Shown: positions 4,731 to 61,125 of the stretch, piece after piece
How positions within the stretch are numbered: position 1 is the stretch's first letter
Layout of the letters: each line of letters starts with the position of its first letter
Source of the DNA: Clostridia bacterium
GTDB lineage: Bacteria; Bacillota; Clostridia; Christensenellales; CAG-1252
Assembly (NCBI GenBank): GCA_017961365.1
Contig: JAGCXI010000068.1
Span: 1 to 62,164, forward strand
Direction of reading: 5' to 3'
Length of the DNA: 62,164 bases
The notes under the pieces: generated by a model
Database searches by the model: none
The model's input: the letters and a program-made list of their open reading frames with translations, nothing else
What the model was told of the DNA's origin: nothing
Program-made: the position numbers and the translations under genes

Positions 4731-4736
4731 TTTTGT

Positions 4737-4813: not shown

Positions 4814-4819
4814 TATAAT

Positions 4820-4894
4820 GGCCCCTTGGTCAAGCGGTTAAGACATCGCCCTTTCACGGCGGTTACATGGGTTCGAATCCCGTAGGGGTCACCA
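4820..4894 (+). tRNA. tRNA-Glu (TTC)
   Basis: GGCCCCTTGGTCAAGCGGTTAAGACA...CTTTCAC...GGTTCGAATCCCGTAGGGGTCACCA. Close to Bacillus-type tRNA-Glu. Confidence 0.9.
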
Positions 4895-40680: not shown

Positions 40681-42264
40681 TCACCCCTTGCTTAGGCAAA
40701 AATAAAAAATGTCGGAAAAATCCGACATTTTTCTGGTTGGTGGGCAGTAACTCTTTTGTTTAGAACTCTGGGAACGCAAAGAAGAGGGGGTTGTTTCCGC
40801 TATTTCGGACTCAACTTTTTGAAGTTGTTCTTTAGTCTTTTTCAGAGTGGGGAAATCGTCCGTAAAGTTATAGGTTATTACTATTCTATCATCATATAAT
40901 AGCACCTCTCGCACGAAGGTATTTATCAGCTGTTTTTTGAGATCAATATTGGTCGGATCGGTAAAGAACTCTGCCCTCAAAAAGTCCTCGATTTGCTCGA
41001 CGGTCAAATAGGCAAAATTACGGTTTTTCTCTTTCTCAATATCCACGTCAAGGATGGCGATTTCGGTTTCAAGTTCTTTCAGCCTGCTTTTCGTTGCCTC
41101 GGTGATGATCCCTTGTTCAATGGCTTTAATCATATTGGTTTGAGCACGTATCGCATCCCTTTGTTTTTGCTCTAACGCTCGGAGCGCCGTATGATCCTGC
41201 ATACCGTTTTTGTGCATTTTGAAAACCTGTGTGGCGATCTCGTGAATGTTCGCATTTTCGCAAAGAAGCCTCGCCGTCGTATGGACGACGATATCCTCAA
41301 TCACTTGTTTCTTGATTGCGCGCGTCGGACACTTTTTCTTCCGCCCTCTACCGGGGAGACAATCATAATAATAGTGGGTAGCGCCCGTCTTGGAACGTCC
41401 GCTGACACCGGACATCCTTCGTTTGCAGTTACCGCAAAACAGTTTCCCCGAAAGGATGAAGTCGCAAATCTCTTTCTTGCGGCAGGGAGCAAGCTTGTTT
41501 TCCTCGTTTATTGCGCTAACGGCTCTCCATAATTCCTCGGAGATGATGCGAGGGAAGATCTTGTCATAAACGATGCCTTGATGTTCGACGATTCCCGTAT
41601 AACGCACATCGTGTAAAAGGTCGTAAAGGTATTTCAAGTTAAGCGGTCTGCCGTTCTTCCTTCGATACCCCCGCTTCTCAAAATTAGCCAAAATGGCAGG
41701 GACGGTGTATCCCTTTGCATACTCCGTGAAGGCTTCAATGACGATATTGCTTTCGTATGGATTGATGACGCACCTTTTATCTACGACGTCGTATCCGAAA
41801 ACCGCTTTGCCCCCTCCGGTCTGACCTTTGCTCCAGCTCTCCCTCAGCCCGCGATTGACCTTTTGTTTCAGCTCCGCCGAATAGTATTGGTTCATACCCT
41901 CCAGCAAGCTTTCGAGGATGATACCCTCGGGGCTGTCGGGAATATTCTCCATCGCGGATACGAGTTTGACGCCGTTTTCTCTCAAGGTGTGTTTATGGAT
42001 AGTCGTTTCGTACTTGTCTCGAGAAAAACGGTCTAACTTGTAGACCAAAACGATCTCCCATTGACCTTTGGCACTATCTCGAATCATCCTCTGGAAATCC
42101 GGTCTCATATCGTTCGTGCCCGACATCGCGCGGTCGATATAGGTATCCACGATCAAAATATCGTTGCTTTTGGCGTAATCCTTACAAACGCGGAGTTGTC
42201 CTTCGATCGACTGCTCCGTTTGGCTATCGCAGGAATACCTTGCATAAATCACTGCTTTCTTCAT
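40681..42264 (-). CDS. Large serine recombinase (integrase)
   Basis: MKKAVIYARYSCDSQ...SIEGQ (resolvase catalytic Ser domain), recombinase domain, Cys4 zinc ribbon CGNCKRRM...YYYDC, and a coiled-coil C-terminal region. 527 aa. Confidence 0.88.
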   Translation of the reverse strand: MKKAVIYARYSCDSQTEQSIEGQLRVCKDYAKSNDILIVDTYIDRAMSGTNDMRPDFQRMIRDSAKGQWEIVLVYKLDRFSRDKYETTIHKHTLRENGVKLVSAMENIPDSPEGIILESLLEGMNQYYSAELKQKVNRGLRESWSKGQTGGGKAVFGYDVVDKRCVINPYESNIVIEAFTEYAKGYTVPAILANFEKRGYRRKNGRPLNLKYLYDLLHDVRYTGIVEHQGIVYDKIFPRIISEELWRAVSAINEENKLAPCRKKEICDFILSGKLFCGNCKRRMSGVSGRSKTGATHYYYDCLPGRGRKKKCPTRAIKKQVIEDIVVHTTARLLCENANIHEIATQVFKMHKNGMQDHTALRALEQKQRDAIRAQTNMIKAIEQGIITEATKSRLKELETEIAILDVDIEKEKNRNFAYLTVEQIEDFLRAEFFTDPTNIDLKKQLINTFVREVLLYDDRIVITYNFTDDFPTLKKTKEQLQKVESEIAETTPSSLRSQSSKQKSYCPPTRKMSDFSDIFYFCLSKG

Positions 42265-42790: not shown

Positions 42791-42819
42791 TTGACAGACA
42801 CCTTTTTATGATATATAAT
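42791..42819 (+). promoter_or_regulatory. Consensus sigma-70 promoter driving the plus-strand genes of the element
   Basis: TTGACA (42791-42796), 17-nt spacer, TATAAT (42814-42819). Confidence 0.65.
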
Positions 42820-43976: not shown

Positions 43977-44214
43977 TCAATTTGGGTTTATCGAACGCAG
44001 AGATATAACCGATCGTTCGAGCGGTACTTGCAAGATAAGAGTGGCCACTCACCGTAAGAAATCGCCCGAAACGAGATGTTTCAACAAATTGCGTTCGTTA
44101 CCGATACAACTGAATAGCGGCAAACAGATCTGAGCGAGGAGCTGGATCAAAAAAAGCCGCACCGCTGTGCTATCGGCGTCACGGGCAACGATACCACAAA
44201 GAGGAGGAAACAAT

Positions 44215-44499
44215 ATGTCGAACAAATCGTCCGGAGCGGGCTCTGCCGGTAAGTACAACAACCGCAGATGGTCCGTTCCTTCCAAGCGTGCAAAAGCATA
44301 CGCGGAAGACAGAAAGGCGAAAGTCCATACCTATGGTAAGAAGGAAGGTCAGCAGCTCACCGACTACGAAGCCGGTATGCGTTCCGGTTACCTGCAATGC
44401 CAAGGGGATCACGCCGGTCTGTACAAGTACAAGAAAGCCCTTGCGGAGGGCAAATCTAAGAGCGAGGCAAAGAAGATCTCGCAACAGAAAAAGAAATAA
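44215..44499 (+). CDS. Lys-rich small basic protein (candidate nucleic-acid-binding protein)
   Basis: ATG at 44215 after AGAGGAGGAAACAAT. 94 aa with a KKISQQKKK tail. Confidence 0.55.
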   Translation: MSNKSSGAGSAGKYNNRRWSVPSKRAKAYAEDRKAKVHTYGKKEGQQLTDYEAGMRSGYLQCQGDHAGLYKYKKALAEGKSKSEAKKISQQKKK

Positions 44500-44517
44500 A
44501 AGGAGGAAAAACAGAGA

Positions 44518-44859
44518 ATGAGCAACAAGATTTTTGTGGAAAGAGACACCTACGAGAGTAAGGGTAAGACCTATTACTCTTATTTCATCAAGGGACAAAT
44601 CAGAGGTAAGGACGTTCGCGTCGCCATCGTTCCCCCGGATCTCGGCGGATATGCCGTTTTGGAGATCGTCTTCGGAGAAGCTATGGCTGCGGAACTCATC
44701 GCCAAACCGTTTGAGATCAAGGACGACAAGACGGGTTCCGTCATCAGCGGAAACACCTATATGGTCCGCACCGAAGACGAAAACGGCATGGTGTACGAGT
44801 GCAATGTCAAGCCTTTCCGTTCGTCCGATAAATCGCTTCTCAATATGCTTTTGAGATAA
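44518..44859 (+). CDS. Hypothetical 113-aa protein (candidate ssDNA-binding/OB-like; speculative)
   Basis: AAAGGAGGAAAAAC RBS. Beta-strand-rich sequence. Its position resembles gene V in filamentous phages. Confidence 0.5.
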   Translation: MSNKIFVERDTYESKGKTYYSYFIKGQIRGKDVRVAIVPPDLGGYAVLEIVFGEAMAAELIAKPFEIKDDKTGSVISGNTYMVRTEDENGMVYECNVKPFRSSDKSLLNMLLR

Positions 44860-44870
44860 GGAGGTAAAAC

Positions 44871-45977
44871 ATGGAATTCAGTAAAGAAAAAATCAGATGG
44901 ATCATTATCATCTCGGCAATTCTCGTCATCCTCGGTCTCACGATCGCGGCGGTCGTCGTTTCGCAGAAGCAAGCCGCGCAAGTAAATGAAACCGTGTCGG
45001 AATTGCTCCTTGAGGATAACTCGGAAACCCTTTCGGCAGAACCTATCGCCATCACGACCATTTCCGGAAGCGGCATTATGGTGCTTGAAAAACCGATGTA
45101 CCTTGGTGCCGGTGACGGCGGTAGCGGCGATTCTGCGTTCGCAAAGACCCTCACCGCAACCGTCCTTCCCGTGGACGCACCGGATAAGAGCGTGGATTGG
45201 TCTGTCGCTTGGGCATCGGACGCAAGTCGTAGTTCCCAACAGGTTAATCAGTATATTACTGTTACCCCGAATGCAGACGGCTCTAACGTCGCAGTCGTTC
45301 GTTGCTTGAAGAGTTTCGAGGGAGACCACATCCTTGTCACGGTCACGACCCGCGTAGGTGGCTTCTCTGCAACCTGTCAGGTGGAGTATGTCGGTGTGCC
45401 GCAGACCATGACGATTAACACGACCGGTAAGACGGTAAAAACCGATACTGCTTGGAACAAGTCCATGGTGGAATTACAGTGCGGTTCGGAATACTATTTC
45501 GACCTCGATCTGGATAACGAACTTCATGCGGTCGGATCTTCGTATGGCAACTATACTTTCTCGGTCGCCGCTTATGGTTCGGTTGACGTCAACGTTCATG
45601 CTCACAACAATTCGACCGGAGAGGATACTTATTCCGTTGAAACGGAAGAGCATAAGGTCGGAGATGTTCTTGAATCAAGTGGCTATATTTATACCTTCTT
45701 CTCTGAGCCCAGTAGTCTTCTCCCGGTGGTTCATGTTGAATTGCGTGATGGCAAACTGTATGTGAAAGCCGAAAGAGCAATTTCTTCGCTCAGTGGGATA
45801 AACGGTAACCGTGGTGGCTATGCCGAGAGATCATTCAAGCAGTACACCGACGGTAAGTGCCCGTATGCCACCATCACCGTGACTGAGACCACGACCGGCC
45901 TTTCCAAGTCTATTAACGTGAAGACCATCGCGACCGTCACGAACGTGAATATGTCTGCCGCAACGATGTCCTTCTGA
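44871..45977 (+). CDS. N-terminally anchored membrane protein with a Big_2-like Ig segment
   Basis: TAAGGAGGTAAAAC RBS. TM segment IRWIIIISAILVILGLTIAAVVV. ...LTATVLPVDAPDKSVDWSVAWASD...ITVTPNADGSNVAVVRCLKSFEGDHILVTVTT..GGFSATCQVEY resembles bacterial Ig-like group 2. Confidence 0.65.
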   Translation: MEFSKEKIRWIIIISAILVILGLTIAAVVVSQKQAAQVNETVSELLLEDNSETLSAEPIAITTISGSGIMVLEKPMYLGAGDGGSGDSAFAKTLTATVLPVDAPDKSVDWSVAWASDASRSSQQVNQYITVTPNADGSNVAVVRCLKSFEGDHILVTVTTRVGGFSATCQVEYVGVPQTMTINTTGKTVKTDTAWNKSMVELQCGSEYYFDLDLDNELHAVGSSYGNYTFSVAAYGSVDVNVHAHNNSTGEDTYSVETEEHKVGDVLESSGYIYTFFSEPSSLLPVVHVELRDGKLYVKAERAISSLSGINGNRGGYAERSFKQYTDGKCPYATITVTETTTGLSKSINVKTIATVTNVNMSAATMSF

Positions 45978-45991
45978 GAAGGAGGTGTCGT

Positions 45992-46585
45992 ATGAGTGGA
46001 AAGAGCGCAAAACTTAAAATAAGCAAGGTCATAACTTACATCTTGATCTTCCTCGTTTTGGTGGGCTGTTTAGGTTTCGTCGCCTATTTCACGAATGGGT
46101 TTACCGGTGATTTCAAAGAGTTCTATGTCAATGTTGACGGCAAGAACGTACTGGCAGAAGCGGAGGGGTATATGCTCGCAGCAGACGCCCCTCTATCCGC
46201 AAACGTCAAATACACGTTCGGCGCCATAAGCAAAGACATTTCGGGCTACCATCTCGCAGTCCTTCCCGCGACGGATTTCACCTTTACCGTAGATGGTGAA
46301 GAACACAAGTTCGCCGACGAGAAGGACCTCTCCGCGGGTTTTGAGATCATCGAAGGCGAGGAGGAGTTCACGCTGACGCCGAAGGGCTCGCTGATGGATA
46401 TCTTACAGGCAGTCTATTCGGATACGGAGATCGTTATGGATAAGAGCCAAATCTCCCTAGACAAAGACCTTTTTAAGGTCGTCGTCTATTCCGAGGACAA
46501 GTCCGCGAAGGTCGTCATCGGTTGCCGCCTCAAGGATCCCTTTATGGAGGGTGTGAGGTTGGATAAGGAGGTGATCACGTTTTGA
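45992..46585 (+). CDS. N-terminally anchored membrane protein
   Basis: GAAGGAGGTG RBS. TM segment VITYILIFLVLVGCLGFVAYF. 197 aa. Confidence 0.6.
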   Translation: MSGKSAKLKISKVITYILIFLVLVGCLGFVAYFTNGFTGDFKEFYVNVDGKNVLAEAEGYMLAADAPLSANVKYTFGAISKDISGYHLAVLPATDFTFTVDGEEHKFADEKDLSAGFEIIEGEEEFTLTPKGSLMDILQAVYSDTEIVMDKSQISLDKDLFKVVVYSEDKSAKVVIGCRLKDPFMEGVRLDKEVITF

Positions 46586-48003
46586 CCAGAGAGATTAGAA
46601 CGAGAGTAATCATTGGTTTTCTCGCTCTGATCTTGGGGGTAGGTGTCGTCCTATTGATGGCACTTTCCCCCACTATGGCAAGCGCGGAAACCAAAACCTA
46701 TTCGGGCGTATTGTCCGATCTCAAGCGCGACGCTACCTTCAAAGAAAGTAACTATCCGGAGAACCCAACGGACTATTCCCTCTCTATCATCCAAATAGCG
46801 GAGAGCGAGGACAGCGAACTATTCTTGTATGTCTACCAACCGAGCCGAAAGACCAAGGAACTGGCGGCGTGCTCGATCAATATCTCCACGACCATCAACG
46901 ATGCCATATCGTTCACGAACTATAAGCTGGAACTGCTAAATAGCAGCGGCGTGTTCTGCAAGTATAAGGTCAAGGATTTCACGGTACGGACGGATCCCGT
47001 CAGGTACTATGTCATCACTTCAATCTATCGTCCCTTCGACGAGTCCATAGACCTAGGAACGGGAAACAGCAATACCATTACCGAAGTCAACTACGCCGTG
47101 AACAAGCAATACTGTTTCGGATCGATCAACGGCAACCCGTACTGTTCCGTCGTGGATATAGAGACCATCGTCGTCACGGATAAGTTTGTCGGCTTCGTTC
47201 GTTACCCGGACGGATTCAAGCTGTATATCGGCGCTTGTGACGCTCACTTCGTCGCGTTCAACACGGACCGACCTATGGACAAGCTCTTAGAAGCTGACGT
47301 GTATTACACGCAACAGAAATACGAGATGTCCTCCGCAATGATCGTCGGAAAGCAAGAAACCTTCGGGACCAAAGAGGACAAGTATGCCTATTTGAAGTAC
47401 ACGGATAAGGTGGAACACAATGGCGGAGGTTGGTTCGCCGGGACGTACCGATGGGATCGTATTCAAACGGTTTCGGATTTCATATCCAAAGAAAACCGTG
47501 AGAATATTTACCATGGCGCCATCCTCGATGTGGAGACCTCTTCCAAGCTGACGGATGCGGCTCTTAGGGAGCTTCAAGGGAAACAATGGGTGTTGCGTTT
47601 CGCCGAAACGAGCTATGAGTTCAATTCGGTAAACGGTGTCACTTGGCAATTTTCATCCATCGTAGGTGACGTAACCATTCTGCGCTTGAAGTTCGAAACA
47701 GACGGTATCACCTATAACCTCGGTGTGATCGATAACAAGCAAACGGGAAGCACGGAGCCTGTGAATGAAGTAGAGTATGAGGTCAGCGTTTCAAGTCGAG
47801 CAAAGAAACTGCTCATGCTGTTGCTGTTGATCTTACTGCTCATCATCCTTGCACCAATCCTGCCCTATATCCTGAAAGTCGTGTTTTGGATCATCACACT
47901 ACCGTTCAAGATCCTCGGCGGCATTCTGAAGGCGTGGAAGAAAGCCAGAGAGAAACGGGCGGAGAGAAGGAATAAACCGCCACAACGAGATCCCACGGGA
48001 TAA
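46582..48003 (+). CDS. Protein with a signal-like N-terminus and a C-terminal TM anchor plus basic tail (adsorption/spike-like topology)
   Basis: TTG start after AAGGAGGTG, overlapping the upstream stop. N-terminus ...VIIGFLALILGVGVVLLMALSPTMASAE. C-terminus KKLLMLLLLILLLIILAPILPYILKVVFWIITLPFKILGG...KKAREKRAERRNK. Confidence 0.6.
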   Translation: MTREIRTRVIIGFLALILGVGVVLLMALSPTMASAETKTYSGVLSDLKRDATFKESNYPENPTDYSLSIIQIAESEDSELFLYVYQPSRKTKELAACSINISTTINDAISFTNYKLELLNSSGVFCKYKVKDFTVRTDPVRYYVITSIYRPFDESIDLGTGNSNTITEVNYAVNKQYCFGSINGNPYCSVVDIETIVVTDKFVGFVRYPDGFKLYIGACDAHFVAFNTDRPMDKLLEADVYYTQQKYEMSSAMIVGKQETFGTKEDKYAYLKYTDKVEHNGGGWFAGTYRWDRIQTVSDFISKENRENIYHGAILDVETSSKLTDAALRELQGKQWVLRFAETSYEFNSVNGVTWQFSSIVGDVTILRLKFETDGITYNLGVIDNKQTGSTEPVNEVEYEVSVSSRAKKLLMLLLLILLLIILAPILPYILKVVFWIITLPFKILGGILKAWKKAREKRAERRNKPPQRDPTG

Positions 48004-48077
48004 CCGAAGGATCACAATCAAACGGGCGTCGGCGGAGAAATCTGTCGGCGCCTTACTTTTATAAAGGAGGAAAAACA

Positions 48078-48209
48078 ATGAAAACAGTAAAAAGAATCGT
48101 GGCAGTCCTTGTGGTTGTCCTGATTATCGCCGTTGTGTCCTATATGGTCTATACGGCAAAACAAATAGATATGGATCAAGTCAAGGAGGCTGCCTATGCG
48201 AGTGCGTAA
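48078..48209 (+). CDS. 43-aa single-TM protein (candidate major coat/virion membrane protein). Not in the supplied ORF track.
   Basis: TAAAGGAGGAAAAACA RBS. MKTVKRIVAVLVVVLIIAVVSYMVYTAKQIDMDQVKEAAYASA. The stop at 48207-48209 overlaps the next gene, which starts at 48196. Confidence 0.5.
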   Translation: MKTVKRIVAVLVVVLIIAVVSYMVYTAKQIDMDQVKEAAYASA

Positions 48210-50310
48210 AGCATTGAATATCATCCTAACGGTCGCCTTATCCGGTTTGTTCCTATTGTTCGGGTACCGACATTTCACCGGATCGTATATCCGCCTCGGA
48301 GAGAGTTTTAAGGACTTGTTCGGGAGTTTGAAATACTACTTCTATATGCTCTTTGATAAGCCCGTGGGAGAAACGCCGCACGTCGCCGAGTATTCCGAGT
48401 TCGTGAAGTGGGAGATCCTACTTCCCAAAGACTTTGAAACCTTCAAATCGGGAGCTGCGGCGTACTTCAAGGCGCTGTTCAACGGCAAGAACTTCGTAGG
48501 CTGGCTGACCTCGGCACTGACCGATGTGGGAGGCTTCGCTAAGGTAATGATGTTGATCCTGCCGTGCATTGTCGTGGGAATCATCGTCATTAAGCGTATC
48601 TATGGACAGGAGAATACCGATCACGGCAAGGACACGGTGCCGTTGCGCGTCTATAAGTTCATATCGAAGAAAACCTATCAACCGACCAAGGGCTTTGTGC
48701 AGCAATACATAGAGTTCATAAAGGCCAATTCGTGGATTTTGATTTCTTGGGCGGTCTTGTGGGGCTTGCACTTCAATCTCGGCGCGATCGTCGTTGAGTT
48801 CTTCGCGTATTACTTCTTCTTTTCGGTATCATTCGGTTGGGAGACTTTGTACGTGCAGTTCGTCAAGCTCGTACTGGATCTTCAAACGATTATACGCTTC
48901 TTCCCGTGGTGGGTGCTAGCGTTCTTCGCCTATGCGATCTTCCATCATATTCGCAAGAAGATTGCACTTGCTCTGCTCCGAAACTACGAAGCGAGGAATT
49001 GCGGATTCATCAACAGCCTGCCGATCGTGTCTATCACTTGCGGGAGCATGGGCAAAAAGAAAACCACAATGATCACCGACATGACTCTCTCCCAAGAGGT
49101 TATGTTTCGGCAGAAAACCTTTGAGATCATCCAAAAGGGAGATATGCAATTTCCACACTTCCCGTGGATCCACTTTGAGGACGAACTGCTCCGCTGTATG
49201 GAACACGGCACCGTCTATAATCTCGCAACCGTTAAGGCTTGGGTGGCAAAGAAACAGGAGCGGTACGAAAAGCATCACAACAGCGACTTGCAACTCTACG
49301 GATACGATACCAAACGCTACGGTCTCGTGTATAACGATGCCCTGAAACCTCGCCATCTCTTCGAGGTCTTAGAAACCTATGGGCAGGCGTACTTTATCTA
49401 TGCCATGCAGACGAGCCTCATCGTAGCGAATTACTCCGTGCGAACGGACAACGAAATGGTGTCGGTCGGCAACTTCCCGATGTGGTTGACGGACTTTTTC
49501 GCCGAGGAGCGACGGAACAGTAGGCATTCTCATATCTTGGACTTTGATGTACTACGCCTCGGTAAGAAAGTGATGGAGAGCAATCCCAACGCAGGCAGTT
49601 TCGAGTTCGGTGTGGTAGCTATAACGGAGATCGGGAAAGAGCGCGGCAACAACCTTGAGTTGAAAGAGATCAAGAAGAAAAACGACGAGACCAACCAAAA
49701 GAACGACCTCTTCAATTCGTGGCTGAAAATGTGCCGTCATTCGGCGACCGTGGATAATTTCCCGTTTATCAAGGTGTTTACCGACGAACAACGGCCCGAA
49801 AGTTGGGGAGCGGACGCACGGGATCTTTGCGACATCGTGAATATCGCTCAAGCGGGAGAAACTAAACTTGCGCTGCCGTTCTACACCATAGAGGAAATGC
49901 TGTCCGAGTGGGCGTATAGCTGGTTCATTTCGCTGTATTACGACTTCCGCTATCGTCGAGGGGACAATACTCTCCTTGTGCACATCTTGAAGTCCGTGAC
50001 ATCGTGGCTTTGGAAACGAAATCATCGGATCTATAACCGTTTCGGGTACTCCGAATTGAAGGTTGAAAAGGAACGCGGGACGATGGACGGTCGCGCGGAA
50101 AGCAAGAAGTATTACCTCATGCACAACAAGATTTACAGCGGCAGGTTCACGACGGACTGCTTTTCGGATTATTTCAACGACTTAGCGAAGAAGACGCCGG
50201 TGGGACTCTTGGATTATCCGGAGTACGAGACCGAGAAAGCAAGCATCGACGAGCTGAAAATGCAGAACAGCTATTTCATCAATTCGCTGTATAAGGACGA
50301 GGAGGAATAA
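48196..50310 (+). CDS. 704-aa protein: N-terminal polytopic membrane domain plus a cytoplasmic domain with a deviant P-loop (candidate assembly/extrusion ATPase)
   Basis: AAGGAGG RBS. About 4-5 hydrophobic helices in residues 7-250. ITCGSMGKKKTT (residues 281-292) is Walker-A-like. FGVVAITEIG is a possible Walker B. Confidence 0.6.
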   Translation: MRVRKALNIILTVALSGLFLLFGYRHFTGSYIRLGESFKDLFGSLKYYFYMLFDKPVGETPHVAEYSEFVKWEILLPKDFETFKSGAAAYFKALFNGKNFVGWLTSALTDVGGFAKVMMLILPCIVVGIIVIKRIYGQENTDHGKDTVPLRVYKFISKKTYQPTKGFVQQYIEFIKANSWILISWAVLWGLHFNLGAIVVEFFAYYFFFSVSFGWETLYVQFVKLVLDLQTIIRFFPWWVLAFFAYAIFHHIRKKIALALLRNYEARNCGFINSLPIVSITCGSMGKKKTTMITDMTLSQEVMFRQKTFEIIQKGDMQFPHFPWIHFEDELLRCMEHGTVYNLATVKAWVAKKQERYEKHHNSDLQLYGYDTKRYGLVYNDALKPRHLFEVLETYGQAYFIYAMQTSLIVANYSVRTDNEMVSVGNFPMWLTDFFAEERRNSRHSHILDFDVLRLGKKVMESNPNAGSFEFGVVAITEIGKERGNNLELKEIKKKNDETNQKNDLFNSWLKMCRHSATVDNFPFIKVFTDEQRPESWGADARDLCDIVNIAQAGETKLALPFYTIEEMLSEWAYSWFISLYYDFRYRRGDNTLLVHILKSVTSWLWKRNHRIYNRFGYSELKVEKERGTMDGRAESKKYYLMHNKIYSGRFTTDCFSDYFNDLAKKTPVGLLDYPEYETEKASIDELKMQNSYFINSLYKDEEE

Positions 50311-50313: not shown

Positions 50314-51213
50314 ATGCCATTTGAAGAAACGAAAGTATATTACGACGGTAGCCATTACGTGGCGATTCCCCACACCGAACGAGGTTCCCGAAAGCGTAAA
50401 AAGCTAAAGGAAGAGCCGATCGTGGTGGAGAATAGAACAACTACGCGGAAGGAGCTGTTCAATGATTTGTACGCCTCGTCGGAAAGCAAGACCAAACGAA
50501 GCAAGAAGAAGGAAATTACCGATCAGATGAAAGACTTTTTCCCCAATAAAAAGGACGCGGATATGTTCGTGGAAGAGAACTTCCAAAGGAAACGTCGCAA
50601 TCTTATTTGTCGAAGAACAAGGCTCTTTCGGAAGGCAGCGATGCAGGAGTTCAATTACTTTTGTACCTTCACCTATGATCCTCAAAAGATGGACGAAGAT
50701 ACTTTTCGAACAAAGCTACAATATGTGTTTAGACACAATAGCACGCGCAAAGGCTGGAAGTATATAGGGGTATGGGAGCGATCCCCGGAGAAGCACAGAC
50801 TTCACTTTCACGGGATCTTTTATATCCCCGACGGTACAATGCTCGGTGAATTTGAAGAAAAGAGCGATTACAGCATCGGAGACGCCAAACGGAGAAAGAC
50901 GAAGCAGAACACTTACTTCGCGGAACGCTTCGGGCGAAACGTCTTTGATCGCTTGGAACACACCACTGATGCAAATCGATCTTTGACGTACATTATAAAG
51001 TACCTCGAAAAAACGGAAGAACGGATCGTGTATTCCAAGGGAATGAAGCAATATTTCATATCGGATGTGATGGAGGAAGACGTCGCTTGTCCGTGCGGCA
51101 TCGGCGACGCAAAGCTTCTTTTATTCGATGACTTCATCTGCTACGATCAAGGGGAAATCAAGGGACAAGTATCGCCGAAAGTCATAGCGGAAATGCGGAA
51201 AACAGATTCGTGA
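50314..51213 (+). CDS. HUH-superfamily rolling-circle replication initiator (two-tyrosine, superfamily I type)
   Basis: AGGAGGAATAAGGT RBS. Motif 1 FCTFTY (116-121), motif 2 LHFHGIFY (H164-F-H166), motif 3 YIIKYLEK (Y226, Y230). Confidence 0.75.
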   Translation: MPFEETKVYYDGSHYVAIPHTERGSRKRKKLKEEPIVVENRTTTRKELFNDLYASSESKTKRSKKKEITDQMKDFFPNKKDADMFVEENFQRKRRNLICRRTRLFRKAAMQEFNYFCTFTYDPQKMDEDTFRTKLQYVFRHNSTRKGWKYIGVWERSPEKHRLHFHGIFYIPDGTMLGEFEEKSDYSIGDAKRRKTKQNTYFAERFGRNVFDRLEHTTDANRSLTYIIKYLEKTEERIVYSKGMKQYFISDVMEEDVACPCGIGDAKLLLFDDFICYDQGEIKGQVSPKVIAEMRKTDS

Positions 51214-51349
51214 TAAAGAACCGAAAAAGCAAACTGCATTTCGCCGCCGAGAGGAAACGAGGGCGCGACGCAAGCGGATTAGCGCGACCGCCCCGTCCTC
51301 CGCGGCGCAGTTGCTTCGGTTTTGATCGAATCGCCGCGCGCTATGCGGG

Positions 51350-51469
51350 CGTGTGCTTGTTGGCGGATCGAAGCGCGGCGACAGCCGCGCGAAGAGACGC
51401 CACTTGATATATACAAGCACACGTCCGAGTGCCAATTGTATTATCAAGCTTGTTTTATACAAGCACACG
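51350..51469. repeat. ori-like repeat cluster downstream of rep: ACAAGCACAC(G) in three copies (inverted at 51350-51360; direct ATACAAGCACACG at 51411-51423 and 51457-51469) plus the GC hairpin GCGCGGC-GACA-GCCGCGC (51373-51390)
   Basis: Read from the sequence. Confidence 0.6.
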
Positions 51470-51691
51470 CATTACTGCCAATCGAGGTTTTTTAGGTATT
51501 TTCGGTCAAAAACACAGTTGCTCTTTCGCTCGATTTTTCAGTAAAAATAGCTGTGGCTATTTGGAGCAGAGAGAGCGGCTTGATAAATATTTGCTAAGGT
51601 CTATTATTATGCTTTTTTGCGGTTTGTTCGACACCAGACACATACTTTGCATTGAACGACACTAACTTGTATTTTAAATAACTCTTGGTTC

Positions 51692-52939
51692 TTAATTTAT
51701 CGTTTGATTACTATATAGCAGTTTAATACTCTCTTTTAGTGAAGGCTCCCGATGAATTCCAAGAGCCAATAAGAATTCGACATATAGCTTTTTTTTCATG
51801 AATTCATATTCGTCATCACTTATAATATCGTTATAAACCACCGGATTTGTTATAATGAGATTTCGATCCAATCTAACATCATAATTGTTATCGTTCACAA
51901 ACACATTTTGGCAGTTTATAAGAGACAAGCAAACAAAGATTTTTCTATTGCTAAAAATGTTTTTAAAAACACTGGTATAGCTTTCTAACAAGCCTCCCAA
52001 TTGATTCCATAATGGGCACCATTCAAAATAATCTTTGCCGGAACTAGCATGACGTAATAAATCTCCTTGATTTAAGGGGCAAAGACATTCTACAATTCCG
52101 TTATATGTTATTAAACCTTCATAATTTCTGTAATCGCTTTCAGGTGAGGCGATGAATCTTAGCCCGTCCACACTGGGCAAAGATGTATGTCCACAATTAA
52201 AATGATTAAAGATATCACTAAATTTAATATGCTTAATAATACTTAACGCAAAAGGATTAATATTATAACTTGAATCAATAAACGTTTCAGGAATTAAATG
52301 AATAAGTAAAAATTTTTTACCATTATCCCAATTTATATTTGTTTTATCTTCGCAAAATTTTATCCGATCTAACCGAAAATTATAGATTTCTTTTTCCAAG
52401 ATAATTGATTGATTAAATCTATTTTTAAGTTCATTATAAGTCATAGAAAATTTCCTGTTCCCGTTTCTTGTGTATGCATAATATCTACATTGGTTTTCTA
52501 AAAATAAATATGGTGCAAAGTTATCGCTCTGAATGAACAAAACAACAACATATTTACCATTTTCAAGTTTGATAAAATGAAAAATAATAAAAGGAGTTTT
52601 GGGAAATATAGACAAAAGGTTGTTACGTCTTTCTTGTTCAAATGAATCCGTATTGTTGTTAGGAATATTAATCCCAACTATGTTCGTAGCTATACCATTT
52701 TTTTCAGAAATTCCAAAAATTAAATATCCACCTTCGGAATTAGCAAAAGAACAAACGTCGTTTTTAAATTCAACTATTTTTTCATTTCGTTTATTATCGT
52801 TTTTATCAAATTCTAGAAAAGCAAAATTTTCCTTGTAGTCTATATATTCGTTCTCTCTATAATCTTGGTTATCTAAGAGAAGTTTTAATTCATCCTCATT
52901 TATTTCTGTAAATGATTTCCCATTAATTGTTGGTAGCAT
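51692..52939 (-). CDS. AlbA_2 (Schlafen-like, divergent AAA_4) DNA-binding-domain protein with an unknown ~300-aa C-terminal domain
   Basis: ATG at 52939. ...ENEYIDYKENF........IVEFKNDVCSFANSEGGYLIFGISEKNG matches the AlbA_2 core (E..fK...........i....aFANt.GG.l.iGv). Confidence 0.65.
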   Translation of the reverse strand: MLPTINGKSFTEINEDELKLLLDNQDYRENEYIDYKENFAFLEFDKNDNKRNEKIVEFKNDVCSFANSEGGYLIFGISEKNGIATNIVGINIPNNNTDSFEQERRNNLLSIFPKTPFIIFHFIKLENGKYVVVLFIQSDNFAPYLFLENQCRYYAYTRNGNRKFSMTYNELKNRFNQSIILEKEIYNFRLDRIKFCEDKTNINWDNGKKFLLIHLIPETFIDSSYNINPFALSIIKHIKFSDIFNHFNCGHTSLPSVDGLRFIASPESDYRNYEGLITYNGIVECLCPLNQGDLLRHASSGKDYFEWCPLWNQLGGLLESYTSVFKNIFSNRKIFVCLSLINCQNVFVNDNNYDVRLDRNLIITNPVVYNDIISDDEYEFMKKKLYVEFLLALGIHREPSLKESIKLLYSNQTIN

Positions 52940-52943
52940 AGTT

Positions 52944-53309
52944 TTACTCCATAGTTTTGATTTTCGACTCGATATAAGATTGTTCTTCCACAGTAAGATA
53001 GTCACTCAAATCGACGCCCAATTTAACAAGCCCTTTACAGCCAAGCGCACATAAAAAATGACGTGCCGATAAGTATTTATCCTTCATTGTCTTTGGTTTG
53101 TGGGTGTTTATTCTATTCCATATTTTCATTTCTTCCTGATGCTTATTCGCTATCTCGACAATATGCTTGTTCATTTCGTGGAACCTTTGATCTAGGTATA
53201 AAAAATCCAGTTTATTCAGATCACGTTGAATATCATTTATATCATGACGGTCCTTAAACACATCAAAAAGTTTACGAAAATTATCCATTTCGTTAGGTTT
53301 CAGTTCCAT
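52944..53309 (-). CDS. Hypothetical 121-aa helical protein
   Basis: AAAGGAG RBS. The stop lies 4 nt before the AlbA_2 gene ATG. Confidence 0.55.
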   Translation of the reverse strand: MELKPNEMDNFRKLFDVFKDRHDINDIQRDLNKLDFLYLDQRFHEMNKHIVEIANKHQEEMKIWNRINTHKPKTMKDKYLSARHFLCALGCKGLVKLGVDLSDYLTVEEQSYIESKIKTME

Positions 53310-53386
53310 CTCGGGACTCCTTTTTCCGCATTAGGGCGTATTTCATGTGTTTTCACTTTAACATTTGTTGAAAACCTAGATGCCAT
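53300..53386 (-). CDS. Candidate 28-aa leader ORF (MASRFSTNVKVKTHEIRPNAEKGVPRWN)
   Basis: AAAGGAGAATTTATT-ATG. Its stop overlaps the ATG of the 121-aa gene (AGATGGAACTGA). Too short for the ORF track. Confidence 0.25.
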   Translation of the reverse strand: MASRFSTNVKVKTHEIRPNAEKGVPRWN

Positions 53387-53421
53387 AATAAATTCTCCTT
53401 TCTAAATATTATTTGTTTATA

Positions 53422-54168
53422 TCATATTAAATCAGATCTCAAAATACTATCATATGAAATCGATATTTTATCTATCTCATATAAACGTGAATTTATTGCC
53501 TTACAGTCTTCCGAGTAAAAGAAGACTAACACATCTCCATCAGGATGCAAAGAACTTTGAAATACAACACCATCGAACCCCATATTTATAAACTGTCCTG
53601 CCAAGTACTGAGTAAACCAATAGTTATGCCCCGAATAATGTGGCCGTGAAAATTCTTCAGCTATTCTTGAAATAAGATAGCTTAATACTTCATTATCAAT
53701 TAATTTTGCTGATACATTTTTTCGTAAATCGGCAAAATTTAAATCCCGTGTTGTTATAAATTCTGCTATGGAAATTCTTTCATGTTTTATGGGGCGTAGT
53801 TCATATATAACTGTTGTTGGATTGTTACAAGTATAAAGAAATGACTGTCCTTTACAATTAAGCCTCCCTTCTGCTGCAAGTTCGTGAGGTGGCGCGCCAG
53901 ACTTATCTGCATCATATCCTTGAAAAACCTCCTCATCTGAATCAATAAATTTATCAAAGTCCTCGCTATTAGAAACTACTTCATCCAAATTAAAAATACG
54001 TCCTCTAAAAAAGGATAAGCCCTCTTTTATTCGACAAGAAAATAGTCCTCTATTTTTTTCTAATATAGATAAAAAAGGGTTTCTCGTATCAAATCTATTA
54101 AATTTTACAATCGTTTCTTTCCAATGATAAAAATCAAAACGAACTTTATTTCTTAACTGTTTATCCAT
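53422..54168 (-). CDS. RES-domain protein with an N-terminal extension
   Basis: ATG at 54168 after TAAGGTG. GRLNCKGQSFLYTCNNPTTVIYELRP (R...E) and FDGVVFQSSLHPDGDVLVFF (S) match the RES (Arg-Glu-Ser) domain pattern. Confidence 0.65.
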   Translation of the reverse strand: MDKQLRNKVRFDFYHWKETIVKFNRFDTRNPFLSILEKNRGLFSCRIKEGLSFFRGRIFNLDEVVSNSEDFDKFIDSDEEVFQGYDADKSGAPPHELAAEGRLNCKGQSFLYTCNNPTTVIYELRPIKHERISIAEFITTRDLNFADLRKNVSAKLIDNEVLSYLISRIAEEFSRPHYSGHNYWFTQYLAGQFINMGFDGVVFQSSLHPDGDVLVFFYSEDCKAINSRLYEIDKISISYDSILRSDLI

Positions 54169-54209
54169 TGTGCACCTTATTGTTTTTCTGATACTTTGCA
54201 AAAGCAATT

Positions 54210-57200
54210 TTACTCCATAGGCTTAATCATCGACTCAATGAAAGCGATTTCGGATTCGTCGAGATTGTATTTAGCATATAAATCGGCATCCGCCCAAGCT
54301 CGTGAAAAGTCTTGTACGGAGACGAAACGATATGTTTTTGCCGTGCCGTGCTGACTGATTTTAGCGAGACTCAACAAGTATCTTGCGAACTTGGTTTTCA
54401 AATAATTGCAAAGATTGGTTGCTTTGTTTTCATCAAGATTCAAATCGGCACCAACCACAAGAAACGTTTCCGTACAAACAGTGTTCGGCGAGCCGACAAA
54501 TGCATTTTGATTATCATCATTTAACTCGGTACCGATATTATTAGATTCGGGAATGTACACCTTCCATAGTTTCACCCATTCTTTATGGGTGGAAATTTCA
54601 GAATAGTCTACATAGCCTTCTTTCCCGGAACGCCCATAGCATTTTACTGGATTCTTTAATCCAATGGGTTCCGCTCTAAATTTCGAATCATTTATAAAGA
54701 ATGTTCTAAAGCCAAACGCTTTAGCTGCCGATATGTGTCTCTCAAAGGTGTCCAAAGTTTGTTCCTGCGGCAAAACCTTGTCAAGTATGGAGATTGCTCG
54801 ACTATCGCGAATAAAAATATCAAGATCCCTTGTTTTCAAGGAACGTTGTGAAATATGCGTTTTCCCTTCGCCTTCGTGTGTAACAATCGTCACGCCGACT
54901 TGAGAATTATCAAAGGACTTATTTCTTGCAAAATAGCAAATACCGCCTCTATTGTTTGTATCGGGGAAAACTTCTTCGGGATGCAGAAAATCGTGTAGCT
55001 CCTTTATGTGTTTATCTCTCAACATTTCATCTCTAAATTCATCAAGCCCCTTGCCGCCGGCATACCAACGAGTAGGCATAATAATAGAGAGATATTCGGG
55101 TTGAAGTTTCTTTCCTACTTTAACAAAAGCGTTATAGATAGGTTTTGCGCTTTTCTGCGCGCCGCCGTCGTCTTCTTGATAAGGCGGATTTCCTACTACT
55201 GCATCGAATTGAATCATATCTGCTTCTCCTTGTGTCGGATCGTCTGTCAGTTTTATCTCATCAAAGGGTTTGCTCTGCGCTATTATCTTGGCTATCTTTT
55301 CGTAGTCGATTTCGTCATCCGTTTTCACGTCAAGCAAATCTGTTGCAATGAATCGCTTTGCGATATTGGCACCGTTCAAACCGAGCATTTCATACAGCTT
55401 TCGCGTCAGTTCATAACAAATGGATGACTTCGGAATGGTGTAAATCATATCGGCAACAACCTGTCTGTCAATGCCAAGTGATAGCAATCTCTTTTGCAAT
55501 GCTAATGCGTATTCGCCCGACGTACCGGCAATATCCAATATCCTGCCGCGCCTTTCGGCAACTTCTTTCAGGAAGTCATCGGAGAAGAGATTGACCATAT
55601 CGTCGCAAATATTCGACGGCGTAATAACGATGGCGTCGCCAAGCTTGCCGAACTTCTTGACGGCGACCGCCGCTCTGTCCTCGGGCGACATATCCGACGC
55701 TTGCGACAAATCGTTTAGGTCTTGGATTTTGTAATCCAAATCGCTCAACACAAACTTGTTGGATTTTTGGTAAAGTAGGACAAGTATCTCCTTTTTCAGT
55801 CCAAGGTTATAGGCAATGCGCTTGTTGTCTTCCGTCTCCATCTTCTCGATAATGTCGGAAACGGAAATAACTCTGTCTTTTGTGATGTATGCAAAGAGCA
55901 AGATTCGGACATAAAAACCCTGTATCTTTTTCTTGTTGCTGATCTCTTGCTTCCGCGTATCGTCAGGTGAAGAAGGCGCATTATCGTGCGGAGCCGTATC
56001 CTCCGTTTCCTCCGCATCGGGATCGGGCGTGCCGCCGTCCGGCGTATTTAAGTCATTGCCTTCGTTCCCGTCCGTGCCATCATGTGCGGGCGTGGATAAA
56101 CCGGCTTTTGATCCAATCTCGTTTTCCTGTTCGATTGCCGCACGAATGGTCGCGTCCTCCAAAATACTCAAATCGACGGGCGTTTCAAGCGCTTCGTCCT
56201 TAATGCCTTTGTCTTTTTTATAGTTGCTTACCACTTGAAGGATATCCGCCGCCTTTACTTCAACGATCTTATCTGTATTGATGGTAACGATGGGAGAAAT
56301 GCGCAACTCTTCGATTATGCGCTTTTCCAGCTCACGATTGCCGCCGGTGTCGACGTTTGCGTTGTAGATTTTAGACTTTGTTTCTTGCATGACAAACATT
56401 CTGTTCGGCATAAAGTCCACAAGCAACGTCTGCGGCTTCATATTGTACTTGATTGTATCACCGTTGTCGTCAACGTAAGTTTTTATATATTGATTTTGCA
56501 AACGGAAAATTGCTTGGTCGTATTCCTGCGGAGAAGCGGTATCTTTTAGATACAACATCGTATCCCACTCCGGTACAGTGCTACCCGTAAGCATACGATT
56601 TACGGTCAACGTGATCGTCTTTTGCCCGTTCTTTTCCGCTACACGAACGGCGGCTTTTATCGCGTTCGGAGTCTTGTAAGCATTTGGATTATCCACGCCG
56701 GAAATGTTGATGATTTTGTATCCATTCAGATTGCGGAACCTATCCGTATTGGCCGCGATCAAGGTTTCAAGAGCGTCGCAAGAAGCGCAATAAGGCAAAA
56801 CAATAACGATATGGCGACACATCTTGCCGTCTTTGATCTTATCGTAATTGAGGAAACCCAACAATTGGTCGTCTGCTTTGCTTCCGTCTATGACTTCCAA
56901 CAAATCAAGTATCTCTCGCTCGTATTTGAATTTCTTATGCAAACCGCTTTCGTTCTTTTTGATTGACATCGGCTTGAAGAGCGCAGAAAACGCATAAGTC
57001 ATTCCCGACTTTTTCAATTCTTCCAAACGCTTGCGGGAAGATTCGTTCGGATTGAAGGCAAATCGTACCATCTGCGGGAATCCGAAATAAGGATTATCCC
57101 ATTCTTTGTAGTCATCGTCCAAGACGTGTTCTTTATCCCACGCTTCCTGATCGTGGACGATGTCGATGAATTGATAGAAGGCGATGATGTCTTCTTTTTT

Positions 57201-58253
57201 GAACTCGCTTCCCATCAAGATACGATACGGTGTACCCGACAGGTGAATGGTGATGTTGGTATGAAGCGTTTTTATCGTTTCGTCCGCTTCTTCCACATCA
57301 ATGAAATCATCTGCGTCTTTCTTGTTTTTGACATCTTTTTCGTATTTCTCGCCTTTAAGCACTGCACCGTACTTATCGGCACGCGCGCCGAAATGTGTTT
57401 CGTCCACAAGCAAAAGATCGATGTCTTGCCCAAATACTTCTTGGTGCTTATCCTTAATGGTATCGCCTTGCAGATCTTGCAAGGTTAAAAAGACGGCAAC
57501 CTTCTTTCCGTTCGATAGCGTTTCCGTGATAATTTTGTTGTTGCGGTTGAGTTCGTCGCTTGTTAAAAAGACATAATCCGCAAATTTGACATGGCTTTCG
57601 ACCGTCTTCTTCCATTCCATCTTTACGTCCGCTTTTGCCGAAACGATAACGACCAATTTGGCGTCCATCTCCGCGGCGCAACACATCGATGTAAACGATT
57701 TCCCGAAACGCATAACGGCATACATCAAAAGATTCTTGCGACCGCTATCTATTGCTTGTCTGAACGCTTTGATCGTTTTCTCTTGATTGGGGCGAGGAGA
57801 AAAGGTTTCGGTGCGTGCAAATGTGAAGGTTTCGGCAAGGCGATTTTCGGCATTGTAGAATTGATACTTCTCGGCATTATCCGAGAAATCTTTTTCAATA
57901 TCCGCGATTGCCGCTTGTATGTCTTCGGAATTGGCATCCTTAAAAAACTCTCGGGAGTAATAAACGCCCGCAGGGATGTCCGTTGGCGTTAATCTTGCTC
58001 TTTGCTTGTCTGTCTCCAAAAATTGATGGACAGCATAATCACGGAAATAAACATCGTCGTTGATTCTCGCCGTACCTTCGTATTGTTTTTCAAGCTCGGG
58101 AAAATGCACGCGCCATTCGTCCAACCGCGTTGAAACGGGTCGATATGTATCGCCGACTTTCAAATAATTGGGAATCGTGTTGGTCGTAAAGGCATAAATG
58201 CGAGGCTCGACTCTTCCGATAATGATATTGTCCAAACAGCTTTTATCTATCAT
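54210..58253 (-). CDS. 1347-aa fusion: GIY-YIG/T5orf172-like N-domain, SF2 (DEAH-type) helicase, acidic linker, gamma-class N6-adenine DNA methyltransferase (Eco57I-type) and TaqI_C-like specificity region
   Basis: IYAFTTNTIPNYLKVGDTYRPVSTRLDEW; AVMRFGKSFTS (motif I); LLLVDETH (motif II); QAIFRLQN (motif VI-like); ITPSNICDDMV, ILDIAGTSGEYA, VVGNPPYQ (residues 1020-1026). Confidence 0.8.
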   Translation of the reverse strand: MIDKSCLDNIIIGRVEPRIYAFTTNTIPNYLKVGDTYRPVSTRLDEWRVHFPELEKQYEGTARINDDVYFRDYAVHQFLETDKQRARLTPTDIPAGVYYSREFFKDANSEDIQAAIADIEKDFSDNAEKYQFYNAENRLAETFTFARTETFSPRPNQEKTIKAFRQAIDSGRKNLLMYAVMRFGKSFTSMCCAAEMDAKLVVIVSAKADVKMEWKKTVESHVKFADYVFLTSDELNRNNKIITETLSNGKKVAVFLTLQDLQGDTIKDKHQEVFGQDIDLLLVDETHFGARADKYGAVLKGEKYEKDVKNKKDADDFIDVEEADETIKTLHTNITIHLSGTPYRILMGSEFKKEDIIAFYQFIDIVHDQEAWDKEHVLDDDYKEWDNPYFGFPQMVRFAFNPNESSRKRLEELKKSGMTYAFSALFKPMSIKKNESGLHKKFKYEREILDLLEVIDGSKADDQLLGFLNYDKIKDGKMCRHIVIVLPYCASCDALETLIAANTDRFRNLNGYKIINISGVDNPNAYKTPNAIKAAVRVAEKNGQKTITLTVNRMLTGSTVPEWDTMLYLKDTASPQEYDQAIFRLQNQYIKTYVDDNGDTIKYNMKPQTLLVDFMPNRMFVMQETKSKIYNANVDTGGNRELEKRIIEELRISPIVTINTDKIVEVKAADILQVVSNYKKDKGIKDEALETPVDLSILEDATIRAAIEQENEIGSKAGLSTPAHDGTDGNEGNDLNTPDGGTPDPDAEETEDTAPHDNAPSSPDDTRKQEISNKKKIQGFYVRILLFAYITKDRVISVSDIIEKMETEDNKRIAYNLGLKKEILVLLYQKSNKFVLSDLDYKIQDLNDLSQASDMSPEDRAAVAVKKFGKLGDAIVITPSNICDDMVNLFSDDFLKEVAERRGRILDIAGTSGEYALALQKRLLSLGIDRQVVADMIYTIPKSSICYELTRKLYEMLGLNGANIAKRFIATDLLDVKTDDEIDYEKIAKIIAQSKPFDEIKLTDDPTQGEADMIQFDAVVGNPPYQEDDGGAQKSAKPIYNAFVKVGKKLQPEYLSIIMPTRWYAGGKGLDEFRDEMLRDKHIKELHDFLHPEEVFPDTNNRGGICYFARNKSFDNSQVGVTIVTHEGEGKTHISQRSLKTRDLDIFIRDSRAISILDKVLPQEQTLDTFERHISAAKAFGFRTFFINDSKFRAEPIGLKNPVKCYGRSGKEGYVDYSEISTHKEWVKLWKVYIPESNNIGTELNDDNQNAFVGSPNTVCTETFLVVGADLNLDENKATNLCNYLKTKFARYLLSLAKISQHGTAKTYRFVSVQDFSRAWADADLYAKYNLDESEIAFIESMIKPME

Positions 58254-58262
58254 TTTAGCCCC

Positions 58263-59234: not shown

Positions 59235-59369
59235 TATTATCCTTTACATTGCTTTGCGCAATTCGTTTTTTGTCTATTTTATATAATAACATATCTACCT
59301 CTTCTTTCTCAATACCTAAGTTGAACTTCTTTATCTTGACTATTGAGGCGACTTGTGCCATAATTAGAG

Positions 59370-59507
59370 TGGACTACAACTTAATATACGACGAGAGAGG
59401 CGCTTTTCTTGGTAAAAGTGTCTCCCTATCTCTCGTCGTAGAGTTGTAGTCCAATACAAGGGAGGCATTTTTCGGTGCGCTCCCGTAATAAGGAGCGCAC
59501 TCTTTTT
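59370..59507 (+). ncRNA. Candidate small structured RNA: long imperfect hairpin (59370-59453) plus an intrinsic terminator (59475-59507)
   Basis: Upstream TTGACT (59336-59341), 17-nt spacer, CATAAT (59359-59364). Helices TGGACTACAAC/GTTGTAGTCCA (11 bp) and TACGACGAGAGA/TCTCTCGTCGTA (12 bp), with apical CTTTT/AAAAG. Then GTGCGCTCC-N8-GGAGCGCAC followed by TCTTTTT. Confidence 0.35.
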
Positions 59508-59529
59508 ATTAAGCAGTCGAAGCGATGAG

Positions 59530-59994: not shown

Positions 59995-60128
59995 ATATGT
60001 TTATACCTCCCGGCTCTGTTTTAGTTATGCTTCAAGAGTGATTGTGTAATGCTTCCCGCCCGCCGAAAGCTCATCTGTTCTGTTTCCCAATTTTGCCGCA
60101 TTTTCCCGCGCATTTGTCTTATAAAAGA

Positions 60129-61037: not shown

Positions 61038-61125
61038 TTCCTCCTAAAATGCTTAATATTGACAATTATATTTCTTTTTGCTACAATTAAATAAAAATAA
61101 CTATAAATTATTTTAGGAATGATAA

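Follow-up and report, generated by a model that had tools for sequence, protein, structure and literature searches.

The closest described systems to the locus reported here are the filamentous phages, whose membrane-anchored ATPase, known as pI or Zot, has been assigned to the FtsK-HerA superfamily (PMC6813254). The inoviruses known from gut Clostridiales carry a stand-alone Zot gene and recognisable coat genes (PMC8530359, PMC10061712), and because of these genes we regard them as distinct from the integrated elements that are the subject of this work. The element described here lies in a Clostridia bacterium (GTDB lineage Bacteria; Bacillota; Clostridia; Christensenellales; CAG-1252), on a contig of 62,164 nucleotides (nt) (GenBank assembly GCA_017961365.1, contig JAGCXI010000068.1), the whole of which we call the window. 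At its core are two overlapping genes, one for a 43-aa membrane microprotein and one for a 704-aa protein in which a membrane domain precedes a P-loop NTPase domain; an initial annotation, made without database searches, had drawn attention to this pair. Here we show that a widespread integrating element, 9-12 kb long and with a phage-type rolling-circle Rep, has this pair at its core. Reading from sequence alone, we propose, at roughly even odds (a probability of about 0.5), that the two proteins form a new kind of membrane export or assembly ATPase with a microprotein subunit, at work in inovirus-like elements.

Results

A conserved microprotein gene overlaps the start of the ATPase gene

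The 43-aa open reading frame (ORF) and the gene for the 704-aa protein overlap by 14 nt, and each has a strong ribosome-binding site (RBS), that of the second gene lying inside the first (Table 1). A hydropathy scan places one transmembrane (TM) helix in the microprotein, at residues 7-27, and the predicted topology has the basic N-terminus (K2, K5, R6) in the cytoplasm and a short, variable tail outside. By pattern search, an ORF consisting of MK-x-x-K-R, some 20 hydrophobic residues and Y-x-x-[YF]-T-[GA] was found in 76 related loci, directly 5' of the ATPase gene and in 71 distinct nucleotide versions, and nearly all of the loci that include upstream sequence carry this pattern in that place. 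K2, K5, R6, A9, Y22 and T26 are nearly invariant, while the tail behind the helix is variable and in almost every locus the total length is 30-52 aa. In most loci the stop of the small ORF falls 4 to ~35 nt inside the ATPase gene, and in a few it falls about 16 nt ahead of that gene's start; GGAGG-type sites precede it in most related loci, and gene callers have called it in other assemblies. For codons 2-27, the proportions of synonymous (pS) and nonsynonymous (pN) differences among loci are 0.72 and 0.30 (pN/pS 0.41), whereas stops always interrupt the +1 control frame, and in the +2 frame the ratio is 1.46. The microprotein is kept even in clades where identity to the window's ATPase is as low as 33-50% (for example loci L254, L256, L260 and L261); in two of these, L254 and L260, a 30-aa version shares 4 nt with the beginning of the ATPase gene. 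No fusion of microprotein and ATPase was found among longer homologues (Rosetta-stone test).

The small ORF is a genuine conserved gene, translationally coupled to the ATPase gene. The initial annotation had reported both reading frames, their RBSs and their overlap, all of which were verified, and had described a single-TM ORF coupled to a membrane-first, P-loop-second protein, an arrangement that recurs across the related loci; the conservation check that it proposed for the small ORF came out in favour of a coding gene.

Between the 473-aa gene and the small ORF lies a terminator-like hairpin with a stem of 13 pairs, 8 of them GC, followed by a T-rich tract. The closest relatives (L001-L011) have an equivalent hairpin and T tract in which the stem bases differ, and across the family such a structure occurs in 33/72 loci as against 10/70 control stretches. 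The hairpin could be a terminator or attenuator; if the genome is single-stranded, a role in packaging or as an origin is another possibility.

The 704-aa protein represents a new family of membrane-anchored P-loop NTPases

The 704-aa protein has four N-terminal anchoring helices and a cytoplasmic P-loop NTPase domain. Its hydrophobic helices appear in the hydropathy scan as four peaks (residues ~6-24, 114-132, 181-211 and 231-249), in line with the four to five helices initially expected in residues 7-250, and a loop of ~90 residues separates TM1 from TM2; the positive-inside rule points to an N-in, C-in topology. The family is large, with at least 2900 clusters at 90% identity and, in an exhaustive search, 1187 clusters at 50% identity (E <= 1e-3 in both cases). 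Among the matches listed, which make up 150 of the 50%-clusters, nearly all are ~700-800 aa long and align end to end, and in the source annotation family members are called only 'hypothetical protein'. Single-sequence and profile searches gave no match to the 704-aa protein in Pfam, PHROGs, NCBIfam or PDB sequences, which bears out the initial impression of a protein outside the known phage assembly and packaging ATPases, and in the literature we found no description of the family.

Conservation of the ATPase motifs was counted in 61 diverse family members. The family P-loop consensus is GxMGxGKTT, with K289 in 61/61 and T290 in 59/61, and residue 288 is Gly in 34/61, Lys in 16/61 and Ser in 4/61. 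Because of this distribution, the P-loop of the window protein is best read as a canonical GxxGxGKT with one clade-specific substitution, G288K. The motif ITCGSMGKKKTT, singled out initially, is present as residues 280-291 (nt 49033-49068, 3 nt from the position first given), but its description as a non-canonical Walker A with Lys in place of Ser/Thr does not stand, since in the register G283..K289-T290 the change falls on residue 288. The suggestion that VVAITE (residues 473-478) might be the Walker B motif fared better: it forms a strand in the structural model and ends in the invariant E478, with Thr or Ser at the position of the Walker B Asp throughout the family. The hallmark of ASCE P-loop proteins, a Walker A lysine together with a Walker B strand that ends in glutamate, is thus found in K289 and E478, both invariant in the 61 sequences. 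K481 and N485, just after this strand, and R533 are likewise invariant, and N412, R416, D449, D451, R514, H515, D530 and Q532 are nearly so. A nearly invariant HILDFD motif (residues 446-451, nt 49531-49548) lies 25 residues before the Walker-B-like strand, and the region of Q532 and R533 offers candidate sensor and arginine-finger residues.

From a shallow alignment of the full-length protein, AlphaFold could model no more than the N-terminal helical domain and left the C-domain at pLDDT <50; residues 1-260 come out all-helical, with block-mean pLDDT of ~50-87. When more distant relatives were added to the alignment and residues 255-704 were modelled alone, pLDDT rose to 86 and pTM was 0.84. 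The C-domain model runs from strand beta-1 through the P-loop, a long helix, a helical insertion (~324-400), the NYS strand, the Walker-B strand and the RH helix to the DEQR strand. A Foldseek search of the poor full-length model against PDB gave nothing meaningful, and the C-domain model has a single match in the BFVD viral library, the unnamed 269-aa protein A0A894JLK1 (E 4e-4, TM-score 0.52 on the target).

Profile comparison with hhalign, against a pI alignment built from M13-like phages, Pf1 and B5, gave the C-domain a probability of 32-40% (P 3-5e-4) over 195-239 collinear columns, with a score of 35.8 where column shuffles score 15.7 +/- 2.9. The alignment pairs the two Walker A motifs, LIVANYS with KIATNL, VVAITE with LLVLDE of M13 pI, and the RH helix with the (R)K/RH helix of pI. 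An attempt to broaden the Zot alignment by scanning IMG/VR with the pI proteins of B5 and Pf1 brought in nothing beyond (near-)identical sequences, and a tblastn search of phages with the C-domain, at E 10, returned only noise. The profile searches that the initial annotation had proposed thus found a weak likeness to pI, while Pfam families for Zot, FtsK and coupling proteins gave no match. ORF1 of Spiroplasma phage SpV1 (715 aa), which we had suspected of homology by its size, was rejected, having no P-loop and an HMM E of 7.

Within a widespread integrating element, the pair is the best conserved part

GC content falls from ~55% in the flanking genome to ~49% across 42-51.5 kb of the window, and the plus strand of this low-GC block encodes, in order, a Zn-ribbon protein, a helix-turn-helix (HTH) protein, proteins of 110, 113, 368, 197 and 473 aa, the microprotein, the ATPase and Rep. 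The order of 473-aa protein, small TM protein, ATPase and Rep is that of Orf6-Orf7-Orf8(Zot)-Orf9(Rep) in B5, a filamentous phage of the Gram-positive Propionibacterium, and III-VI-I of M13 comes close to it.

When 185,579 species genomes were scanned for relatives of the 704-aa protein, 323 genome loci were found, mostly in metagenome-assembled genomes (MAGs) of Clostridia/Christensenellaceae, several of which carry two or three copies of the element; 80 of the 323 loci were retrieved, and gene order was compared over 81 loci. The order is kept across these 81 loci, with Rep 3' of the ATPase gene in 80 of them, and the microprotein-ATPase pair is the most conserved part of the element. Relatives retain the pair while exchanging Rep (PF23343, or Rep_OBD with an SF3 helicase, as in L254/L255) and the integrase (a serine recombinase, or an IS30-like DDE enzyme with HTH_38 and rve domains, as in L260). 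Filamentous phages likewise swap modules and are held together by their morphogenetic module (PMC6668415). In L254 (9142 nt), the first 182 nt are repeated near the end at 95.6% identity, which suggests a circle of ~8.8 kb or a tandem copy. L260 contains a non-coding segment of ~250 nt twice (351-596 and 7098-7355, 83% identity), one copy between the ATPase and Rep genes and the second preceding the first structural genes.

The serine recombinase at the left end of the element matches its NCBIfam models with a best E of 9e-35, under the curated equivalog cut-offs, and a homologue is present in 16 related loci, in most of them also at the left end. A perfect sigma-70 consensus (TTGACA-17 nt-TATAAT, 42791-42819, plus strand) stands upstream of the Zn-ribbon and HTH genes, the first of the element's plus-strand genes. 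The genes of the upstream module (44167-46585) are syntenic in 56-61 of the 81 loci, and their four products have no family match in Pfam, PHROG or NCBIfam. The 110-aa protein is very basic, soluble and among the best conserved of the element, reaching up to 84% identity where the ATPase has ~65%; distant clades encode a different basic protein, of 116-122 aa, just before the microprotein gene (L255:3136-3486, L256:9219-9587). Homologues of the 473-aa protein, whose architecture is g3p-like, stand at the same position in 39/81 loci and also occur in distant clades. Rep matches Pfam PF23343 (REP_ORF2-G2P) at E 2e-10, over the curated cut-off, and a PDB profile search with it gave nothing. The DNA 3' of Rep contains 34-nt direct repeats (51403-51436 and 51449-51482, 79% identical) and a 15-nt inverted repeat (51346-51360/51413-51427), and the repeats at 51346-51482 may mark an origin or an attachment region.

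Table 1. Coordinates of the microprotein-ATPase pair, its element and adjoining genes in the window.
Feature	Position (nt)	Strand	Remarks
Large serine recombinase, probable integrase, left end of element	40681-42264	-	NCBIfam CcrB/CcrA/XisF-type
Basic 110-aa protein	44167-44499	+	Upstream module
113-aa protein	44518-44859	+	Upstream module
368-aa protein, N-terminally anchored, one TM	44871-45977	+	Upstream module; hydropathy scan
197-aa protein, N-terminally anchored, one TM	45992-46585	+	Upstream module; hydropathy scan
473-aa protein, N-terminal signal/TM segment, C-terminal TM anchor, basic tail	46582-48003	+	g3p-like architecture
GC-rich hairpin and T-rich tract, terminator-like	48024-48053	+	Between 473-aa gene and 43-aa ORF
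RBS of 43-aa ORF, AAAGGAGG	48063-48070	+	7 nt ahead of ATG
43-aa ORF, ATG start, MKTVKRIVAVLVVVLIIAVVSYMVYTAKQIDMDQVKEAAYASA	48078-48209	+	Single-pass membrane microprotein
RBS of ATPase gene, AAGGAGG	48183-48189	+	Inside 43-aa ORF; translational coupling
704-aa protein, N-terminal membrane domain, C-terminal cytoplasmic P-loop NTPase	48196-50310	+	
Membrane domain, residues 1-255	48196-48960	+	Hydropathy scan, AlphaFold
Walker A/P-loop, G283-S-M-G-K-K-K289-T290	49042-49065	+	Read as GxxGxGKT with G288K
Strand SLIVANYSVR, near-invariant N412 and R416	49414-49443	+	Pairs with hhTN strand of Zot/pI
Walker-B-like strand GVVAITE, residues 472-478	49609-49629	+	E478 invariant; strand in AlphaFold model
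D530-E-Q532-R533, end of next core strand	49783-49794	+	R533 invariant; D530 and Q532 near-invariant
299-aa rolling-circle Rep	50314-51213	+	HUH motif HFHGIF; two-Tyr motif YIIKYLEK
Schlafen AlbA_2 protein	51692-53005	-	
121-aa ORF	52944-53309	-	3' side of RES-domain gene
RES-domain protein	53422-54207	-	
1347-aa ResIII and Eco57I-methylase fusion	54210-58253	-	
Tyrosine recombinase	60129-61037	-	
Pentapeptide-repeat protein	61126-62130	+	

Directly to the right of the element is a low-GC island (28-46%, 51692-62130) with defence-type genes. In the host part of the window, three tRNA-Met genes are clustered with a tRNA-Glu gene (3651-4894); they are unrelated to the element.

Discussion

In the reading that we favour, the 43-aa product and the ATPase would be made from the same mRNA by translational coupling and would belong to one membrane machine, with the microprotein as a fixed-stoichiometry subunit of the membrane domain of the ATPase. 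The microprotein would occupy the position of pVI in filamentous phages and play a role like that of the pI partners pXI, pVII and pIX. Rep would make circular single strands, and the ATPase complex, probably an oligomeric ring, would spend ATP on moving or assembling DNA across the cytoplasmic membrane, working with the membrane-anchored proteins encoded just upstream, the g3p-like 473-aa protein among them. The outcome would be a chronic, non-lytic, inovirus-like release, driven by a motor in which the membrane domain comes first, the reverse of pI/Zot.

Several results weigh against this reading. The element has no recognisable major coat gene; only 2 loci of the family are found in IMG/VR; no exact terminal overlaps, and so no clean circular contigs, were found among the loci; and searches for a role of the 113-aa protein in single-stranded DNA (ssDNA) binding, including a PDB profile search, gave no support. 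The likeness to pI needs particular caution. Shuffles in blocks of 12 columns reach a score of 37.2, above the real one, and because of this the hhalign similarity may be real and still lie largely in the P-loop and Walker A. The window protein has no match to Pfam Zot (PF05707) at E <= 0.1, nor does any of the 61 diverse relatives at E <= 0.01, while the same model finds M13 pI at E 3e-53 and B5 Orf8 at E 1.5e-5; for these two reasons Zot membership of the family is not established on its sequences. Structure comparison does not bring the protein closer to a known motor: Foldseek of the C-domain model matched no solved structure in PDB at E <= 1e-3, and although about half of the top 50 entries are P-loop NTPases, judged by entry names, none is significant, the best of them being HerA 4d2i at rank 3 (E 0.69, probability 0.13). 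Since motifs and modelled layout fit and no structure match is significant, the C-domain is, as modelled, a P-loop NTPase that can be placed in no known family; the NTPase fold for which the initial annotation asked is there in layout, but it has no significant counterpart in PDB.

One might expect much the same gene set if the element were a minimal integrative conjugative or mobilisable element, with the 704-aa protein as a coupling protein or TraB/FtsK-like translocase, Rep as relaxase, the surface proteins mediating cell contact and the microprotein as a channel subunit. Type IV coupling proteins (T4CPs) and FtsK/TraB translocases likewise have an N-terminal membrane domain followed by a P-loop, an HUH nuclease gene as neighbour and an integrating element around them, and the lack of a coat protein, the near absence of the family from IMG/VR and the weak structural match to HerA would all sit well with transfer of this kind. 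But neither the window protein nor the 61 diverse relatives match the Pfam families FtsK_SpoIIIE, T4SS-DNA_transf, TrwB or TraG-D_C, no structure match to such translocases is significant, a tblastn search of 72,556 PLSDB plasmids found no homologue, Rep is of the phage type PF23343 and not a known MOB relaxase or Rep_trans, the gene order is that of a filamentous phage, and the neighbouring genes include no other conjugation family in Pfam or NCBIfam, so that we consider conjugation unlikely, if worth keeping in mind. We find less probable again a pleomorphic enveloped virus in the style of plasmaviruses or pleolipoviruses, whose spike would be the 473-aa protein; the envelope would contain the microprotein and the other TM proteins, and the TM-first ATPase would load the genome into budding vesicles. 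The gene set, with an anchored spike-like protein, small membrane proteins, an NTPase, a rolling-circle Rep, integration and no capsid gene, is one that we take to resemble that of pleolipoviruses, and the soluble basic proteins could condense DNA. ORF3 of the plasmavirus L2, an Acholeplasma phage (L13696; L259:2278-3216), can likewise be read as hydrophobic segments first and then GGGKS, LILDE and LRHQG..LLSQ; L2 is, like the proposed virus, small, integrating, non-lytic and membrane-associated, and with its ORF3 it provides a second case of a small non-lytic virus that encodes a TM-first ATPase. Yet L2 has double-stranded DNA and wall-less hosts, its ORF3 has 312 aa as against 704, and that ORF3 resembles the window protein in Walker A alone (P 0.068); the known viruses of this style, moreover, live in wall-less or archaeal hosts, while the hosts here are Clostridia and presumably walled. 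L2 ORF3 itself aligns with the pI profile at P 0.002, without a Pfam Zot match.

The initial annotation had compared the 43-aa protein to the major coat protein of a filamentous virion, noting that its charge polarity would be reversed. In size and in its single TM helix the protein does fall within the range of 30-90 aa used for inovirus structural proteins (PMC6813254), its RBS is strong, it is the only small TM ORF of the module, and its basic cytoplasmic N-terminus could contact DNA. On sequence grounds we nevertheless judge a coat role unlikely, more so than either of the alternatives above, because only the basic end and the helix, with Y..[YF]T[GA], are conserved, because many versions have 30-33 aa, and because the gene stands behind a hairpin that is kept in the nearest relatives. 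Inovirus coat proteins have a conserved, exposed N-terminal part and bind DNA through a basic C-terminal part. Of the polarity first described, the basic end is conserved, at the N-terminus and not at the C-terminus; the acidic tail is variable, and it is absent from the 30-33-aa versions, which have only ~8 residues outside the membrane. The gene also follows the g3p-like gene and is coupled to that of a low-copy ATPase, whereas a coat gene usually precedes the adsorption-protein gene, in the strongly expressed part of the operon (compare M13 and B5), and no coat family in Pfam or PHROG matches. It could finally be that the pair is cargo unrelated to DNA export, such as a transporter or an ATPase for superinfection exclusion or defence; the pair has no family assignment and a defence island adjoins the element, but cargo genes vary, while across >1000 clusters nothing in the element is as constant as the pair, standing beside Rep, and this makes cargo very improbable in our eyes.

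Returning to the pair as an export or assembly ATPase with a microprotein subunit, we speculate, tentatively and expecting that the case may well turn out otherwise, that the elements make up an unrecognised and very abundant lineage of ssDNA viruses that infect gut Clostridia (Christensenellales and relatives) without lysing them, lack canonical Zot and inovirus coat and use a polytopic ATPase with an obligatory 30-50-aa microprotein subunit. If this were true, a new virus family or order would be justified, the misses by standard virus detectors would be explained, and a large fraction of gut Clostridia genomes would carry a chronic virus or transfer element that is invisible to current tools. 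The ATPase family would then be a marker for finding such elements. The microprotein would add a clear and testable example of a conserved subunit of under 50 aa in a membrane motor, and the inverted domain order bears on how export machines of the filamentous-phage type evolved in single-membrane bacteria.

How, then, does the pair relate to what is known? Membrane ATPase or transporter complexes can include small single-TM subunits such as KdpF, AcrZ and CydX; these too are single-pass proteins of 30-50 aa, encoded just before a large membrane partner and co-translated with it. The microprotein has no sequence relationship to them, and its partner is an NTPase encoded by the element. With pI/Zot the pair shares a membrane-anchored P-loop ATPase whose gene lies between a g3p-like gene with a small hydrophobic gene and Rep, the collinear motifs GxxGxGKT, hh[TS]N strand, hhhh[DT]E and RH helix, and the presence of tiny single-TM partner proteins (pXI, pVI, pVII and pIX for pI). 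It differs in that the order of domains is inverted, with a four-TM domain of 255 residues ahead of the ATPase where pI has one TM behind it, in an ATPase domain of roughly double the length, with the helical insertion at ~324-400, and in the replacement of the Walker B Asp by Thr or Ser. A membrane-anchored, element-encoded NTPase with a small partner is thus known from filamentous phages, and what is new here is the architecture and the sequence family.

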